Origin: an uncultured bacterium
GTDB taxonomy: Bacteria > Eisenbacteria > RBG-16-71-46 > CAIMUX01 > VGJL01
Direction of reading: 5' to 3'
Length of the DNA stretch: 64,000 bases
Assembly: GCA_964575675.1 (NCBI GenBank)
Contig: CAZNRY010000002.1
Coordinates: 2,187-66,186 of the forward strand
In this document: positions 43,238-52,641 of the stretch, one piece after another
How positions within the stretch are numbered: position 1 is the stretch's first letter
Layout of the letters: every line of letters starts with the position of its first letter
The notes under the pieces: generated by a model
The model's database searches: none
Told to the model about the DNA's origin: nothing
Seen by the model: only the letters and a program-made list of their open reading frames with translations
Program-made: the position numbers and the translations under genes

Positions 43238-44206
43238 GTGGGCATGGAGACCGGGTGGCTCGAGTTCGAGAAGCCGATCATCGAGTTGGAGCAAAAACTC
43301 GATGACCTCCGGGTGTTCGCCGACAAGGAGCACCTCGAGTTCAGCGATGAGCTCCAGAAGTTGGAGGCGCGGGCCGCCAAGCTGCGCGAGGAGACCTACG
43401 CGAATCTGACGACATGGCAGCGCGTGCAGATCGCCCGGCATCCCCGCCGGCCGTACACGATGGATTATGTACAGAGGGTCTTCACCGATTTCACGGAGCT
43501 GCACGGCGACCGGCGCTTCGGCGAAGACCGGGCGATCGTCGGTGGGCTGGCACGGTTCGAAGGGCGACCGGTAATGATCGTCGGGCATCAGAAGGGGAAG
43601 AACACCAAAGAGAACCTTCTACGGAATTTTGGAATGCCCCACCCTGAGGGGTACAGGAAGGCGCTCCGTCTGATGCACATGGCGGAGAAGTTTCGCAACC
43701 CGATCATCTGTTTCATCGACACTCCGGGGGCTTTCCCTGGAATCGGCGCCGAGGAACGCGGACAGGCCGAGGCGATCGCCCGAAACATCATGGAGATCTC
43801 GCTGATCAGGGTTCCGATCCTGATTCTCGTGATCGGCGAGGGGGGATCCGGCGGGGCGCTGGCGATCGCCGTCGGCGACGAGGTCCTCATGTTCGAGAAT
43901 GCGATCTACTCCGTCATATCGCCTGAAGGGTGCGCCGCAATCCTCTGGAAGGACCAGTCGAAGGCGCAGGAGGCGGCCGAAGCGCTCCGTTTGACTGCCA
44001 AGGATCTCGAGGCTCTGGGCGTGATTACCCGGCTCGTCGCCGAACCCCTGGGGGGAGCGCACCGAGGCGTCGATGCGATGGCAGAGACGCTTCGCGGGGA
44101 GATTCGGGCGAGCCTGGATCGGCTGACGGCGCTGCCGACGGACGACCTGCTCCGGCGGCGCCACGAGATGTTCCGGAAGATGGGGGTATTCGCGGAGAAT
44201 CGATAG
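43238..44206 (+). CDS. accA: Acetyl-CoA carboxylase carboxyltransferase subunit alpha.
   Basis: WLEFEKPIIELEQKLDDL, FIDTPGAFPGIGAEERGQAEAIARN, GEGGSGGALAI. GGAAGGAG lies 8 nt upstream. Confidence 0.9.
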   Translation: MGMETGWLEFEKPIIELEQKLDDLRVFADKEHLEFSDELQKLEARAAKLREETYANLTTWQRVQIARHPRRPYTMDYVQRVFTDFTELHGDRRFGEDRAIVGGLARFEGRPVMIVGHQKGKNTKENLLRNFGMPHPEGYRKALRLMHMAEKFRNPIICFIDTPGAFPGIGAEERGQAEAIARNIMEISLIRVPILILVIGEGGSGGALAIAVGDEVLMFENAIYSVISPEGCAAILWKDQSKAQEAAEALRLTAKDLEALGVITRLVAEPLGGAHRGVDAMAETLRGEIRASLDRLTALPTDDLLRRRHEMFRKMGVFAENR

Positions 44207-44220
44207 CGTTCCGGGGTTCG

Positions 44221-44249
44221 TTGACCTCCAGGGGAGCTGTTGTTAGGCT
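44221..44249 (+). promoter_or_regulatory. Candidate sigma70 promoter TTGACC-17-TAGGCT upstream of trm112 and the C25 peptidase.
   Basis: Hexamers and 17-nt spacer seen in sequence, located in the 86-nt accA-trm112 gap. Confidence 0.3.
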
Positions 44250-44292
44250 GGACGCAAGAGTCCCGCGTCCCCGCCGGGCTTAGGGAGGAACG

Positions 44293-44493
44293 ATGCTCTC
44301 GAAGGAACTCTTGGAAATCCTCGTTTGTCCGCGATGCAAGGGAGATCTCGAGTATGACACGGAGCAACAGCGGCTCCGGTGCCATCCCTGCCGCTTGGCC
44401 TACCCGATTCAAGATGACATCCCGATCATGTTGATCGAAGAGGCAGAACCGTTCGACCCGCCGCCCTCCGCCGACTCGAAGGGAGGGTCTTGA
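44293..44493 (+). CDS. Trm112/YcaR-family (UPF0434) small zinc-ribbon protein.
   Basis: 66 aa, [14 protein letters not shown]...[20 protein letters not shown]. Confidence 0.8.
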
Positions 44494-44494
44494 T

Positions 44495-47400
44495 CTGCGC
44501 CCCCCGCAGGTCGGTCTTGCCCTCTGTCTCGTCCTCGCAGTGGGCCTCGGGGCGCCGGGGGCGCGCGCATCGATCGAGGGGCTAGAGGAGCCGCAGGCCA
44601 CACCGGACGGCGTGACCTTCGTCCTCTCTGCTCCCGAGGGGACCGGGCGAATCGTCCGGGAGGATGGGGAGTTGCCCCGCCTCGATGTGGCAGGGATCCC
44701 GTCCATCTGCGAGCGCGGGGGTTGGTTGCTCCCTGCGCGATCGGTCTGGGTGGGGATCCCGCGCGAGGGAGGAGTCGAGGTCTCGTTCGATCCTCTCGAC
44801 CGCTCGCCCCTCCGCCTGGATGAGGGCGGCGGTAGTCAGTTGCCCCTCGGGTTGCTTGGGCGCGGTTCCGTAGAGGTAGGGCCTCCCAGTTGGATTCGCA
44901 ATCAGAGGGTCGTCGCCGTGACGTGGATCCCCCTCGTCCCCGCGGCGGGCGATGCCGCGTGGGAGGGCGGGGTCCGAATACGCCTCCGCTTCCAGGGCGC
45001 GAGAGACGCCGCCCCGGCGCCCGTGGGACGGGATTCCTGGGAGCAGCTCTACGCGGATCTCCTCGTCAACTACGAACAGGCCCGCTCCTGGAGGCGCGCG
45101 GGGATCGCCCGCCCGCGGGCGCGGGGCGATTCATTCTCGACGACGGACAATCCCTGGTTCCGCATCGAGGTCGCGAGCCACGGCGTATACGCGATCGAAG
45201 GTGCGGACCTGCAGGCGGCCGGACTGGGGGATCTCTCCCAGATCGTACCCGAGAAGCTCCGGCTCTTCACGGGAAGCGGTCTGAGCCTGCCCGAGGACGC
45301 CTCCGTGGCGGATGTCCCCGCCTGGTTAAACGAGATCGCGATCCACTTGGATGGGATGAACGACGGTCGGTTCGAACCCCAAGACAAGATCCTATTCCGG
45401 GGGCTCGGACCCGACGGCTGGTACGGCGAGTTCGGGCAGCCGGATCACGCCTACGAACGGTACCGGACCGATGAGTTCTCTTCCGTCAACACATACTGGC
45501 TGAGCTGGGGGGACTTCACCGGAGAGGCGCTTCGCTGGACCGAGTCGGCGGGCCTTCCGGTCCCGGATCCGATTCTGACCGAAGCGCGCGCCCGGATCCA
45601 CTATGAGAGGAATCAGATCTGGGATCCGACGCCCTCGGAGATGTCGACCGGCAGCGCCCCTTACCCATCCAATCTGCCGGCTTGGGAGAGATGGTACTGG
45701 CTGCAAGTGATTGCGACGTCCCGCGAGACCCGCTCTCGGATCGACTTCACCGTGCCCGACCCGGTCTCGGGGAGCACGGGGAGATTCCTCGCGCGGGTAT
45801 GGGGGGCATCGTGGGATTTCTCGACCACGTTCAGGGACCACTATGCGCGCCTGATCATCGGAAGCGACTCGGTTGAGGTTTCGTGGGACGACAAGGTCCA
45901 TCGCGATCTCGTGCTGCAGGACCTGCCTCTCGAAGGGGAGGAGCACGAGCTCATCTTGACGGCCCCGTACAAGTCGGATCCGAACCCCAACGTGTTTCGC
46001 CAGGATCGGTGGTACCTCGCGTGGTTCGAGGTCGACTACCAGCGGAAACTCGTCGCGCGGGGTGACAGCCTGGATTTCGTCGTTGATCCCGGCTCTTCGC
46101 GAAGAGGATTTGCGGTGAGCGGGATCTCCGACACGGCCGCAACGGCGATCCTCGATGTCACCGATCCCCTCATGCCCCGCCCGATCGCCCCCGCGTGGGA
46201 GCGGGAAGGCAACTTCCACCGCGCGATTTTTGGGGTTGATCCTCTGGCGAGCGCCGAGCGGCGCATCGCGGTCGTGAACTTGGACGCGGCGCGCACGCCC
46301 CGGATCACGATCGATGCGCCCCCGCCGGCGGGATACTTGCGCGATCGCCGCGATGCCGTCGACTACATCCTGATCACGCACGCATCCTACGGGGAGGCTG
46401 CCGAGATCCTCGCCTCGTGGAGGCGCGAGCACTCGGGGGAAGGGAATGGTTTTCGTGTCGCCATCGTCGACGTGCAGGACATCTACGACGAGTTCTCGGC
46501 CGGCCGGCTCGACCCGACGGCGATCCGCAACTTCCTTCGCGTCGCGTTCGAGCAGTGGAACGGCGGGGACCCCTCCGCCGCTCCAGCCTATGTCCTCCTT
46601 CTGGGGGATACGACCTTCGACTTCCGGGATCGGCTGAAGCAAGGGGCGTGGGTTACGGTGCCGACCTACGAGGGGTTCTATGACGCGAGCCTCATGCGCA
46701 CGGTCTATTCCCCGCAGTTCGCATCGGACGATTGGTTCGTGCTCTACGACCCATTCCCCGATCCTTCGCTCGACATGGCGATCGGGCGGCTGCCCGCCGA
46801 CACGCCCGCGCGCGCGTTGGCGATGGTGGAGAAGGTGCGCAACTACGAGTCGACGCAGGACACGGGGTCCTGGCGGCAGCGGGCTACCTTGGTTGCCGAC
46901 GATGTCTGCCAGGGGCTCCGCTGCGACTATCCCCTCATGTTTACGCACACGCGGCAGACCGAAGCTCTCGCCGACGATGTGCTCCCAGTCGGCCTCGAGC
47001 GTGACCGCGTCTACCTTTACGAGTACGGGAACGAGTGCATCTATGACCGGAAGCCGGTGGCGGCGGCCGCCCTCAGGAAGAGCATCGACGACGGGACCCT
47101 GATCGTTAACTACACGGGGCACGGCAGCGAGGTGCAGCTCGCCGACGAGAAGATCCTTGAGCCGTCCGGCGTGGCCAGCATGACGAATGCCGACCGCCTC
47201 TTCTTCTTCCTCACGGCATCCTGCTCGGTCGGGAAGTTCGATTTTGCGGGAGAAGGACTGAGCGAGGCGTTGGTTCGCAGACCCGGGGGAGGGGCGATCG
47301 CGGCGCTTTCCGCCACGGCCGTTGCCTACTCGCCCAGCAACGCGGAGCTGAACCGACAGTTCTTCCTGGGGACGTTTCCGGATCGCGATTTTGCGCGATC

Positions 47401-48607
47401 AAGGCCGCTCGGCGAGGCTCTGGTCCGGGCGAAGATCGTGATGGGGGCCTTCTCGGCGCTGAACAACCGGCGGTATCCGCTTCTTGGGGATCCTGCCGTC
47501 CGGCTGAGCGCGACGCCGTCGAGTATCCGAATGCAGGTCGAGACCGTGCGTGCGGCCGGGGCCGTCGCGCCGGACACCTTGATGCGGGGGGCCCGCGTGG
47601 TTCTGCGGGGGCAAGTGGTCGACGGCGCGGGTTCGATCATCGATGATTTCCGGGGAGCCGTGAACCTCCGCGTTTACGATGCGGAGATCCGTCGGGACGA
47701 GACGGCCGATTGCCGGGAATCGCGATTCCAAGCGACGTACAACCTGACCGGAGCGGCGATCCTTCGTCAAACGGCCGCGGTCGAGAATGGCCGGTTCGAG
47801 ATCTCATTCGTCACGCCGGCAGTCCTACGGAGCGGCGTCCGTGGGTGGGGGCAGATCTACGGCTACGCGCTATCGGAAGACGGTCGCAGCGCAAGCGGCG
47901 GGCTCGACAGCCTCGTTGTAACCGAGAACCAGCCCCTGCTCGCCGATGACGGCGAGGGACCCCGGATCGTCCTGACCCCCGAGGGCGATCCCGAGCAACT
48001 CGCGTCCGGAGCCTTGTGGCGCGCCGTCCTGAGCGACTCGAGCGGGATCAACATCACACAGCTCGTCTCCAACCGCTCGGTGATCATGCAGATTGCCGAG
48101 GGAACGCGCCTGGCCCATGTGGAGGACCTCTCCGACTCGGTGAGGTTCTCGGAAGGGTACGCGGAAGGGCACCTGAGGTTCCGGTTGCCTGAGGGACTGG
48201 CCGGCGGGCGGCGCTACCGGCTGACCCTGTCGGCCTCCGACAACTTGAACCAGGGCGGCTCCGCTTCGGCGGACTTCTACCTGGTCGAGGGCGCCGGGAG
48301 CGGACTGACCCTCGATCGCGTTTTCAACGTTCCGAATCCGACCGAGGGCGCAACGACCTTCTTCGTCGAAATGAGCCAGCAGGCCGAGATTACGATTCGG
48401 GTCTTCACGGTGGGGGGGCGGACGATCCGCGAGCTTCTTCCCGGGACACTTACCCCGTCCGAGGGACTCGAGAAGGGGATCTACTGGGACGGCAGGGACG
48501 CGGAGGGGGCCTCCCTTGCGAATGGCGTCTATTTCTACAAGGTCTCGATCCGGGGCAGGAACGGGGAGAAGCGGGATCGGGTTGAGCGGCTTGCTGTCCT
48601 CCGATGA
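44495..48607 (+). CDS. Peptidase C25 (gingipain-like) family protein with T9SS C-terminal sorting domain; PorU-like candidate T9SS C-terminal signal peptidase.
   Basis: Catalytic His in NYTGHGSEVQL and catalytic Cys in LTASCSVGKFD, ~65% along the protein as in PorU. CTD NVPNPTEGATTFFVEMSQQAEITIRVFTVGGRTIREL...GIYWDGRDAEGASLANGVYFYKVSIRG. The first canonical start (GTG 44540) lies after a textbook signal peptide, (L/M)RPPQVGLALCLVLAVGLGAPGARA|S, encoded in-frame from 44495. AAGGGAGGG sits 8 nt upstream of the CTG at 44495, which implies a non-canonical CTG start or a sequence error. Confidence 0.7.
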   Translation: MRPPQVGLALCLVLAVGLGAPGARASIEGLEEPQATPDGVTFVLSAPEGTGRIVREDGELPRLDVAGIPSICERGGWLLPARSVWVGIPREGGVEVSFDPLDRSPLRLDEGGGSQLPLGLLGRGSVEVGPPSWIRNQRVVAVTWIPLVPAAGDAAWEGGVRIRLRFQGARDAAPAPVGRDSWEQLYADLLVNYEQARSWRRAGIARPRARGDSFSTTDNPWFRIEVASHGVYAIEGADLQAAGLGDLSQIVPEKLRLFTGSGLSLPEDASVADVPAWLNEIAIHLDGMNDGRFEPQDKILFRGLGPDGWYGEFGQPDHAYERYRTDEFSSVNTYWLSWGDFTGEALRWTESAGLPVPDPILTEARARIHYERNQIWDPTPSEMSTGSAPYPSNLPAWERWYWLQVIATSRETRSRIDFTVPDPVSGSTGRFLARVWGASWDFSTTFRDHYARLIIGSDSVEVSWDDKVHRDLVLQDLPLEGEEHELILTAPYKSDPNPNVFRQDRWYLAWFEVDYQRKLVARGDSLDFVVDPGSSRRGFAVSGISDTAATAILDVTDPLMPRPIAPAWEREGNFHRAIFGVDPLASAERRIAVVNLDAARTPRITIDAPPPAGYLRDRRDAVDYILITHASYGEAAEILASWRREHSGEGNGFRVAIVDVQDIYDEFSAGRLDPTAIRNFLRVAFEQWNGGDPSAAPAYVLLLGDTTFDFRDRLKQGAWVTVPTYEGFYDASLMRTVYSPQFASDDWFVLYDPFPDPSLDMAIGRLPADTPARALAMVEKVRNYESTQDTGSWRQRATLVADDVCQGLRCDYPLMFTHTRQTEALADDVLPVGLERDRVYLYEYGNECIYDRKPVAAAALRKSIDDGTLIVNYTGHGSEVQLADEKILEPSGVASMTNADRLFFFLTASCSVGKFDFAGEGLSEALVRRPGGGAIAALSATAVAYSPSNAELNRQFFLGTFPDRDFARSRPLGEALVRAKIVMGAFSALNNRRYPLLGDPAVRLSATPSSIRMQVETVRAAGAVAPDTLMRGARVVLRGQVVDGAGSIIDDFRGAVNLRVYDAEIRRDETADCRESRFQATYNLTGAAILRQTAAVENGRFEISFVTPAVLRSGVRGWGQIYGYALSEDGRSASGGLDSLVVTENQPLLADDGEGPRIVLTPEGDPEQLASGALWRAVLSDSSGINITQLVSNRSVIMQIAEGTRLAHVEDLSDSVRFSEGYAEGHLRFRLPEGLAGGRRYRLTLSASDNLNQGGSASADFYLVEGAGSGLTLDRVFNVPNPTEGATTFFVEMSQQAEITIRVFTVGGRTIRELLPGTLTPSEGLEKGIYWDGRDAEGASLANGVYFYKVSIRGRNGEKRDRVERLAVLR

Positions 48608-48793
48608 TCGGACCCGGGGGCTGGGCGGGGCGGGCGTCCAAGGGGCCCCTGCGCCTCATGCTGGCGTTGACACCTTCCGAGGCGGTTGGTAGACTCCTGA
48701 AGTTCGCGGTCGAAGAAGAATGATTCCGTCCGCACGCTGGAGGGCGCTCACAGACGCCCCGGCGAGGGGAAACCGGGAAAGGACCGAGCCTCG

Positions 48794-48889
48794 ATGGGTT
48801 GTGGGAAGAAGCGGAAGAGAAAAAAGATCGCCACGCACAAGCGGAAGAAGCGGCTCCGGAAGAACCGTCACAAGAAGCGGATTCGCTAG
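48794..48889 (+). CDS. 31-aa highly basic protein, candidate ribosomal protein bS22-like; not in the supplied track.
   Basis: ATG 48794 to TAG 48887-89 encodes MGCGKKRKRKKIATHKRKKRLRKNRHKKRIR. It resembles bS22 ([33 protein letters not shown]) of Actinobacteria/Bacteroidota. A GGAAAGGA-type purine-rich tract lies upstream, and a strong terminator lies 35 nt downstream. Confidence 0.5.
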   Translation: MGCGKKRKRKKIATHKRKKRLRKNRHKKRIR

Positions 48890-48924
48890 CCGCGCGGGTT
48901 TCCCCACCGTGCACGGACGTATGC

Positions 48925-48964
48925 AAACTCCGGGGTCCTTCCTGAGGACCTCGGAGTTTTCGTG
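48925..48964 (+). terminator. Rho-independent terminator after the bS22-like ORF.
   Basis: 14-bp stem AAACTCCGGGGTCC / GGACCTCGGAGTTT (one G.U pair) with loop TTCCTGA, followed by TTTTCGTGCGTGTTTTCC. Confidence 0.7.
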
Positions 48965-49000
48965 CGTGTTTTCCGGTGGTCCCGCGTTGGATTCGGCTTC

Positions 49001-51630: not shown

Positions 51631-52641
51631 TTGAATCGCCAATCGAAACGCTCACCCATTCCGGTTTGCCTCCTTCTGCCGCTCCTGCTTCTGCTCCCAT
51701 CGACCACGTGGGCGACCAAGTATGCCGCCGAGTTTCTGCGGATCGGCGTCGGCGCCCGCGCCCTCGGGATGGGGGGAGCCTTTACGGCTCTGGCGAACGA
51801 TGCCTCGGCCGCGTACTGGAATCCGGCCGGTCTGATCACCCTCGGGAACTCTGAGCTTCTCTTCATGCATGCCGAGCAATTCGGCAGTCTCGCAACGCAC
51901 GATTTCTTCGGATACGTGCAACCATTGTCGGGTGAAGGTCCCGCGCCGTCCGCGGCGGTGGGGATCTCTGTGATCCGTTACGGCGTCGATGACATCCTCC
52001 TGACGCGCGATGCGTGGGACGACCTGAACGGCAATGGCAGGCCCGATCCTGGCGAGGTCGACTCCTCGCAGTTCCGCAAGGGGAGCGACGTGGAGTGGGG
52101 CGTGTTGTTTTCCTATGCCCGCAGCGCCGGCGACCGCCTGGACCTCGGCGGCAATCTGAAGGTCGTCCGCCAAGGGCTGCTGCGGAACACGAGCTTCGGG
52201 ATGGGGGTAGACCTGGGAATCCTCTATCGTCTCAACCACGATCTGAGAATCGGCGTGCGTTTGGCTGACATCACGACGACGCAGATTTCGTGGGACACCG
52301 GCACGCGCGAGGTTGTGGCTCCTTCCATGACGCTGGGAGGATGTTGGACGCGCACGGTGCCGGGCATCAGGGGAGATGTGACGCTTTCGCTCGACCTCCC
52401 GATGACCTTCGAGGGTCGCGAGGAGGCCAGCCAGCTGAATGCGGGAAGCGTCGGTACCGATCTCCAAGGCGGACTCGAATACTGGCTTTCCCACGCGATC
52501 GCTTTCCGGTTCGGAACGTCAGCGGGGGAGTGGACCGCGGGAGGCGGACTGCGGTACCGGGGCATGGGAGCCGACTACGCTTTCCTGCCCCACGACGATC
52601 TCGGCGACACGCACCGCATTTCGGCATCTGCCCGCTTCTAG
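51631..52641 (+). CDS. Outer-membrane beta-barrel protein, PorV/LptO-like (T9SS-associated) candidate.
   Basis: Signal peptide MNRQSKRSPIPVCLLLPLLLLLPSTTWA. N-terminal motif EFLRIGVGARALGMGGAFTALANDASAAYWNPAGL, characteristic of the PorV/FadL-like T9SS barrel family. Alternating amphipathic strands run to a C-terminal aromatic residue (F). TTG start with GGAGGAA 7 nt upstream. Confidence 0.5.
   Translation: MNRQSKRSPIPVCLLLPLLLLLPSTTWATKYAAEFLRIGVGARALGMGGAFTALANDASAAYWNPAGLITLGNSELLFMHAEQFGSLATHDFFGYVQPLSGEGPAPSAAVGISVIRYGVDDILLTRDAWDDLNGNGRPDPGEVDSSQFRKGSDVEWGVLFSYARSAGDRLDLGGNLKVVRQGLLRNTSFGMGVDLGILYRLNHDLRIGVRLADITTTQISWDTGTREVVAPSMTLGGCWTRTVPGIRGDVTLSLDLPMTFEGREEASQLNAGSVGTDLQGGLEYWLSHAIAFRFGTSAGEWTAGGGLRYRGMGADYAFLPHDDLGDTHRISASARF

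Follow-up and report, generated by a model that had tools for sequence, protein, structure and literature searches.

Probable translation of the sortase gene porU from a CTG codon at its junction with trm112 in an uncultured relative of Candidatus Eisenbacteria

How can an exported protein be made if the first conventional start codon of its gene lies inside the export signal itself? This question is raised by a gene on contig CAZNRY010000002.1 of an uncultured bacterium of the Candidatus Eisenbacteria lineage, of which a stretch of 64 kb (64,000 nucleotides, hereafter the window) was analysed. The gene, porU, encodes a sortase of the type IX secretion system (T9SS) and lies immediately downstream of trm112, a small gene for a Trm112-like zinc-ribbon protein. 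A first-pass annotation of the window had proposed that translation begins at a CTG codon next to the trm112 stop. The present analysis indicates that porU is probably translated from this codon, CTG 44495, which would give a precursor of 1370 residues. The features of the junction are listed in Table 1.

Table 1. Features at the trm112-porU junction; positions are counted from the first nucleotide of the window.
Feature	Position	Strand	Basis or remark
trm112-like small zinc-ribbon gene, 66 aa	44293..44493	+	Pfam Trm112p, E 7.2e-16
In-frame TGA closing the PorU frame upstream	44432..44434	+	Read in the sequence
Shine-Dalgarno (SD) sequence AAGGGAGGG	44479..44487	+	7 nt 5' of CTG 44495; inside the last trm112 codons
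Out-of-frame TTG 44490 (TTGA overlap with the trm112 stop) and run of six C at 44500-44505	44490..44505	+	Read from the sequence
trm112 stop codon TGA	44491..44493	+	One base 5' of the proposed porU start
Proposed porU initiation codon CTG	44495..44497	+	Sole start-like codon between the upstream stop and GTG 44540; position matches orthologue starts
Predicted signal-peptide coding region, 25 codons, MRPPQVGLALCLVLAVGLGAPGARA	44495..44569	+	Hydrophobicity, -3/-1 rule, orthologue position; predicted cleavage before SIEG
GTG start of public annotation P0001 (1355 aa)	44540..44542	+	Inside the hydrophobic region of the signal peptide; without SD
Corrected porU coding sequence as proposed here, 1370 codons plus stop	44495..48607	+	NF033707 and Peptidase_C25 matches

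The product of porU and its export signal

The protein scores 561.6 bits (cut-off 420) with the NCBIfam model NF033707, 'type IX secretion system sortase PorU', over residues 219-1368, and contains a full Pfam Peptidase_C25 domain (E 3.6e-86, residues 624-1004). Because the NF033707 match lies above the cut-off, the product is the T9SS sortase PorU itself and not just a generic C25 cargo protein. The first-pass annotation, which had called it a C25 peptidase exported as a T9SS substrate, was right as to the peptidase and needs refining on this point. The closest database proteins are 48-53% identical, one of them being named PorU of Candidatus Eisenbacteria, and the PorU encoded on a metagenome contig (locus L083) is 59-60% identical. 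With PorU of Bacteroidota, the protein of the window shares the full-length match to NF033707 and the C25 domain; it differs in that the gene belongs to a Candidatus Eisenbacteria lineage, adjoins trm112 and has no porU-porV arrangement, and that a region of ~200 N-terminal residues precedes the point at which the match to the model begins. Proteins of the PorU family require Sec export.

The PorU frame is open from 44435, directly after the in-frame TGA, and the first ATG, GTG or TTG in it is GTG 44540; both had been claimed before and were seen directly in the sequence. Since this TGA closes the frame, a canonical porU start further 5' in the window is ruled out, and an ATG of the same frame at 44354, which comes from the conserved 'EYD' codons of Trm112, is severed by it. 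Between 44435 and 44540 the only start-like codons in frame are CTG 44495 and GTG 44540; ATT, ATC and ATA do not occur there. It can be seen that the CTG stands in frame at a place where no ATG, GTG or TTG separates the upstream stop from the signal peptide. The position given for it earlier, 2 nt after the trm112 stop, holds, with a single base (T 44494) in between, so that only the way of counting differs.

Translation from CTG 44495 reads (M)RPPQVGLALCLVLAVGLGAPGARA, followed by SIEG. It comprises an n-region with Arg, an uncharged hydrophobic region (h-region) of 15 residues and A-R-A at -3 to -1. The best 10-residue Kyte-Doolittle mean of the h-region is 2.93, as compared with 2.1-3.4 for the signal peptides of orthologues and 0.99 for the product starting at GTG 44540. 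A crude filter was also applied, which asked for a basic residue, an uncharged 10-residue segment whose hydropathy averages 2.5 or more, and a small-x-small motif. Out of 83,221 stop-free six-frame segments of the 64 kb, 11 places passed this filter, and the CTG 44495 site was among them. These results agree with the earlier description of a Sec-type signal peptide with an AxA site ahead of the first canonical start; by this heuristic score, an N-terminal Sec signal peptide is obtained only if translation starts at CTG 44495. After cleavage behind ARA, mature PorU is predicted to begin SIEGLEEPQATPDGVTFVLSAPEGTGR.

In the public annotation the protein (P0001, on an NCBI contig of 69,558 bp) begins MGLGAPGARASIEG, 15 codons downstream of the CTG. 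As its GTG start lies inside the hydrophobic core, the export signal is cut off. Two other kinds of signal were considered and rejected. A Tat-type signal further upstream is suggested by 'TRRE' and 'ERRD' in the open frame; these are the SD read as Arg codons, and no start lies upstream of them. A lipoprotein signal would have to use L-A-L-C, in which the Leu at -1 is unfit for a lipobox.

The strength of the SD was scored as the pairing of the 20 nt upstream of a start with a generic anti-SD. CTG 44495 has a predicted duplex of -12.1 kcal/mol at a spacing of 7 nt, or 8 nt if counted from the GGAGG core, which bears out the strong SD 8 nt upstream that had been reported for it. Only 0.9% of the 20-mers in the window reach -12 kcal/mol or better. 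For the annotated GTG 44540 the value is +0.7 kcal/mol, that is, no SD. An SD at functional spacing is thus found at the CTG and none at the GTG. By the filter counts and the SD scores, the layout exceeds what would be expected by chance.

A hairpin is predicted over this region of the mRNA, in which 44490-44499 pair with 44505-44514 and the SD pairs with CCCUCU at ~44520. Its z-scores against shuffled sequences are only -1.2 to -1.6 and it is not conserved in the related loci L006, L164, L168 and L001; an mRNA structure hiding the SD and the start was set aside on these grounds. As a separate observation, positions 44519-44540 of the window resemble ~2998-3019 of L006 at the nucleotide level (GCCCTCTGTCTCGTCCTCGC and ATCCTCTGCCTCGTCCCCGC, both encoding L-C-L-V) despite a protein identity of ~50%, and the CCCUCU predicted to pair with the SD lies in this stretch. 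The shared stretch may reflect a constraint at the RNA level, or it may be a coincidence.

The trm112-porU junction in related genomes

The gene order accA-(PAP2)-trm112-porU-small open reading frame (ORF)-RNase R-PilZ is conserved in relatives within Candidatus Eisenbacteria, and 14 related loci have trm112 ahead of porU. An N-terminal signal peptide is present in every full-length orthologue, ~10-15 residues before a conserved PDGVxFVLxAP motif. At most of the 14 junctions a plausible ATG, GTG or TTG start lies at the trm112 stop or within a few nucleotides of it. The junction reads TGAtccgTTG in L001, followed by Arg as in the window, TAGccgATG in L163, TGAccgATG in L005 and TGAttccaATG in L008; in L083 the two genes overlap (ATGccTGA). 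The first ATG stands 16 and 28 nt after the stop in L003 and L007, and L165-L167 offer two candidates each, namely an ATG that lies 26-35 nt before the stop and has a strong SD, and, 4 nt past the stop, a second codon (ATG, GTG or TTG). In L164 (GAGGAGGGcTAGcGTG; stop TAG, one base c, GTG) the layout is the same as the TGA-t-CTG of the window, and the SD also reaches -12.1 kcal/mol.

CTG itself recurs in L006, an independent metagenome-assembled genome (MAG), Candidatus Eisenbacteria SBS.BIN.67, whose PorU is 49-50% identical to that of the window. Here (AAAGGAGGGaTGAtCTG; TGA, t, CTG) the stop, the spacer and the start codon are identical to those of the window, the CTG is preceded by an SD of -12.4 kcal/mol, and translation from it would read (M)LRHPLAAVLVLTILCLVPALAAA. 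A neighbour-joining tree places the window beside L083, which has ATG, and L006 in a group with L164 (GTG) and L168. The two CTGs therefore stand in different clades. Taken together, the position of CTG 44495 fits the ATG, GTG and TTG starts found near the trm112 stop: its equivalent is TTG in L001, GTG in L164 and once more CTG in L006.

In L168 the stretch from the trm112 stop to the signal peptide again offers no canonical start, and ATT (in an ATTGA overlap with the stop) or ATC is all that is available. In this locus (1501-1810) the gene caller took an ATG 183 nt upstream, which overprints trm112 and yields a protein of 1428 aa (P0004), and no trm112 was called. A similar trap is posed by L006 (2680-3060), where the upstream frame is open and holds ATGs inside trm112.

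The SDs close to the junction are strongest where the start codon is weak, all three of CTG, CTG and GTG (window, L006 and L164) lying near -12 kcal/mol. The ATG and TTG starts near the stop mostly have -1.7 to -5.6 kcal/mol, with -9.2 in L083. In L168, with ATT or ATC only, the SD is not strong (-4.4 and -6.8 kcal/mol). The alternative upstream ATGs of L165-L167 have SDs as strong as those of the weak codons, encoded by the conserved EEAE codons of Trm112. The SD strengths and spacing at CTG 44495 and its counterparts fit a compensation for the weak codon, and they fit coupling between the two genes.

A wider set of PorU homologues was surveyed for the same feature. A hydrophobic h-region was found in 139 of ~146 scorable homologous loci, and these 139, in each of which the upstream end of the frame could be scored, formed the survey set. 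In three of them, namely the window, L006 and L168, no ATG, GTG or TTG occurs within 30 codons upstream of the h-region, and each of them is one of the 14 loci in which trm112 and porU are tightly joined. The other 125 loci contain no such case, a distribution with a hypergeometric probability of ~8e-4 if phylogenetic relatedness is ignored. It follows that the missing canonical start is specific to the coupled junction and is not general in porU genes from MAGs.

The signal peptides of the orthologues, the conserved junction and the CTG of L006 together give good support to initiation at CTG, as the first-pass annotation had claimed; the starts of the orthologues lie by the trm112 stop, and the same order of SD, TGA, t and CTG is found in L006. 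That CTG 44495 is actually used is what we infer from the sequence.

Alternatives to initiation at CTG 44495

Among the alternatives, decay of the start codon survives best, and it is unlikely. According to it porU would be silent or barely translated and on the way to becoming a pseudogene, or only a truncated cytoplasmic product would be made from GTG 44540. The poor performance of CUG as an initiator in E. coli and the use of GTG 44540 in the public annotation would agree with this. However, the frame of 1370 codons is intact, the full-length product scores above the PorU equivalog cut-off and the residues that are invariant among orthologues are kept, while GTG 44540 has no SD and falls within the h-region. 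In addition, L006 is in the same state and its gene is intact too, and a strong SD at optimal spacing has been retained before the CTG in both.

An error of base calling or consensus, or a minor variant within the MAG, with TTG, GTG or ATG as the true codon at 44495, is very unlikely. The contig comes from a metagenome and is represented only once in the databases (P0001: 1 member, 1 contig), and a single T-to-C change from TTG would suffice; L001 indeed has TTG and then Arg at the corresponding position. Against this, L006, an independent assembly from another clade, shows the same TGA-t-CTG with a strong SD, and L168 likewise lacks a canonical start. That a random error should have struck twice, in two assemblies and each time at the first base of the porU start codon, is very improbable, and the unusually strong SD fits a long-standing compensation for a weak codon. 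The base-call error kept in reserve by the first-pass annotation has thus lost most of its ground, given that the CTG is shared by a second assembly, which belongs to another clade.

Least probable of all, and rejected here, is that translation begins at the out-of-frame TTG 44490 and enters the PorU frame through a C missing from the run of six or through -1 frameshifting, or that a prfB-like +1 shift produces a Trm112-PorU fusion. TTGA and ATGA overlaps are the commonest layout of coupled genes (PMC12548453). One added C at 44500-44505 would join TTG 44490 to the PorU frame, and an ATGA stands in the corresponding frame of L006. In prfB the SD lies close to the stop, as it does here. The SD, however, is only 2-3 nt from TTG 44490, measured from the end of AAGGGAGGG or of the GGAGG core, and ~1 nt from the ATG of L006, as against 5-8 nt from the CTG; L006 has neither a homopolymer nor a slippery heptamer; the out-of-frame ORFs differ in length, ending after 31 codons in the window and after 13 in L006; and the product from the TTG, MICAPPQV..., would have no basic n-region. 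As to +1 frameshifting, no CUU_U slippery site exists, the sites being UCU UGA U in the window and GGA UGA U in L006, and a fusion would bury the signal peptide behind 66 cytoplasmic residues. Such a fusion is also not conserved, since orthologues differ in the frame that porU takes with respect to trm112 (0, +1 or +2).

Several points weigh against initiation at CTG 44495 itself. First, L083, the closest relative of the window, uses ATG. Secondly, L006 is less clean than the window, as the porU frame runs on upstream without a stop and offers two ATGs, at 2815 and 2845; both fall within trm112, their SD is weaker or missing (-8.0 and -0.7 kcal/mol), and ATG 2815 comes from the conserved 'EYD' codons. 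An exact look-up found neither of the products that would start at these two ATGs on record. Thirdly, the signal peptide was scored by a home-made heuristic and not by SignalP. Fourthly, the case rests on the sequence of an uncultured MAG, the closest sequence found being 59-60% identical, and scans of genomes and metagenomes together with an exact look-up of the product retrieved no second assembly of the same organism. Fifthly, initiation complexes on CUG are less stable than those on AUG, GUG or UUG, and CUG is inefficient in E. coli (PMC11497404). Finally, a scan of the 28 coding-like ORFs of the window, selected with a crude filter on GC content at third codon positions and with the first canonical start taken as the start, gave no other convincing case of an SD followed by a CTG start; the sole further hit, CTG 3966, falls within the gene before it. 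It follows that the use of CTG is not a genome-wide habit.

Coupling to trm112 and neighbouring features

If porU is translated from CTG 44495, the codon would be decoded as formylmethionine by the initiator tRNA, and the first 25 residues would form a signal peptide for the Sec pathway and signal peptidase I, cleaved after ARA. The weakness of the start codon would be offset by the very strong SD, which is optimally spaced and lies within the final codons of trm112. A ribosome terminating on trm112 would find itself one base from the CTG, with its anti-SD still able to pair with the SD ~10 nt behind, and could restart there. The two genes have the same orientation and their stop and start are a few nucleotides apart (TGA, T, CTG); initiation of porU is probably coupled to termination of trm112. 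The outcome is likely a low expression, linked to that of trm112, of an enzyme needed in small amounts.

Close spacing of stop and start is known to promote coupling (reviewed in PMC12548453), examples being galT-galK and rplK-rplA at +3 nt and trpE-trpD at -1 nt. The junction of the window resembles these pairs in its +1 nt distance, in the SD inside the end of the upstream gene and in the conservation of the spacing in relatives. It differs in the restart codon, which is AUG, GUG or UUG in the known cases and is CTG in two genomes here, possibly ATT or ATC in a third. A doubtful extension is that ribosomes coming directly from termination on trm112 account for most or all translation of porU in this lineage, which would relax the need for a canonical start. 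If this were true, the restart codon could drift among ATG, GTG, TTG, CTG and even ATT or ATC with the gene remaining functional, and the junction would be a natural case of stop-start coupling that tolerates near-cognate restart codons.

Initiation at CTG as such is rare but has been verified for a small number of bacterial genes, to which porU would add a further case. Initiation at CUG in E. coli reaches ~1-2% of that at AUG (bioRxiv 10.1101/063800), and in the same species hda and yfjD have verified chromosomal CTG starts, that of yfjD having first been proposed from conserved sequence and an examination of the ribosome-binding site, and confirmed afterwards (PMC3531124). The inference for porU follows the same logic as that for yfjD. 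The difference is that hda and yfjD were confirmed experimentally, and the present case is argued from the need for a signal peptide and from orthologue junctions, in an uncultured relative of Candidatus Eisenbacteria. In a survey of nearly 85,000 genes, as cited in PMC11983097, 0.024% were annotated with CTG. In the rep gene of IncFIB plasmids a CTG start is paired with a good ribosome-binding site, a combination believed to keep expression low; the start was proven by N-terminal sequencing and mutagenesis, and databases routinely place it, wrongly, at a GTG 14 codons further on (PMC11983097). The likeness to porU of the window is close, with a strong ribosome-binding site before the CTG and an annotated GTG 15 codons downstream. 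In contrast to porU, the CTG of rep does not lie at a stop-start junction and the N-terminus lost from it is not a signal peptide. The twist at porU, a modestly interesting one, is that near-cognate starts recur at one conserved stop-start junction.

For annotation, the consequence is a correction of the public protein, whose 1355 residues lack a signal peptide and for which a cytoplasmic location would be predicted. CTG starts are systematically missed by standard gene callers, which allow for no start codons but ATG, GTG and TTG; in L006 and L168 such programs are left with a downstream start that loses the signal peptide or an upstream ATG that overprints trm112. With its three natural variants (CTG, CTG and ATT/ATC) beside the canonical ones, the trm112-porU junction could be used for testing how SD strength and stop-start proximity compensate for weak starts.

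On the upstream side, trm112 starts at ATG 44293 with GGGAGG before it. It is preceded by a spacer of 86 nt in the window (44207-44292) and of ~70 nt in L167. Besides the SD of trm112, the spacer of the window contains a weak promoter-like TTGACC-17-TAGGCT, which was spotted by eye and is absent from the output of the scan tool. In most relatives a gene of the PAP2_3 phosphatase family lies between accA and trm112 (1746-2738 in L001, 214-1233 in L163 and 234-1226 in L164), where the window and L167 have nothing but the spacer.

An Rfam scan of 44200-49000 gave nothing above threshold. Between porU and the RNase R gene lies an extremely basic ORF of 31 codons, MGCGKKRKRKKIATHKRKKRLRKNRHKKRIR (48794-48889, plus strand), which is flanked by a promoter-like TTGACA-17-TAGACT at 48667-48695 and a terminator-like hairpin at 48942-48954. 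Scans against Pfam and NCBIfam returned no match for it; among solved ribosome structures a match to the ribosomal protein bS22 was obtained (8fmw_V, E 5.6e-07; 7jil_5), and the ORF is identical or nearly so in L165-L167, whose PorU is only ~50% identical to that of the window. Further downstream, 3' of the RNase R and PilZ genes, an ORF of 336 residues (51631-52641, plus strand) gives weak matches to UPF0164 and DUF5723. We take UPF0164 proteins to be FadL/PorV-like outer-membrane proteins, and the product might be a T9SS partner of PorU; no other candidate for a T9SS component was seen near porU. The same arrangement is found in the one relative whose gene list reaches that far (the contig with P0008).

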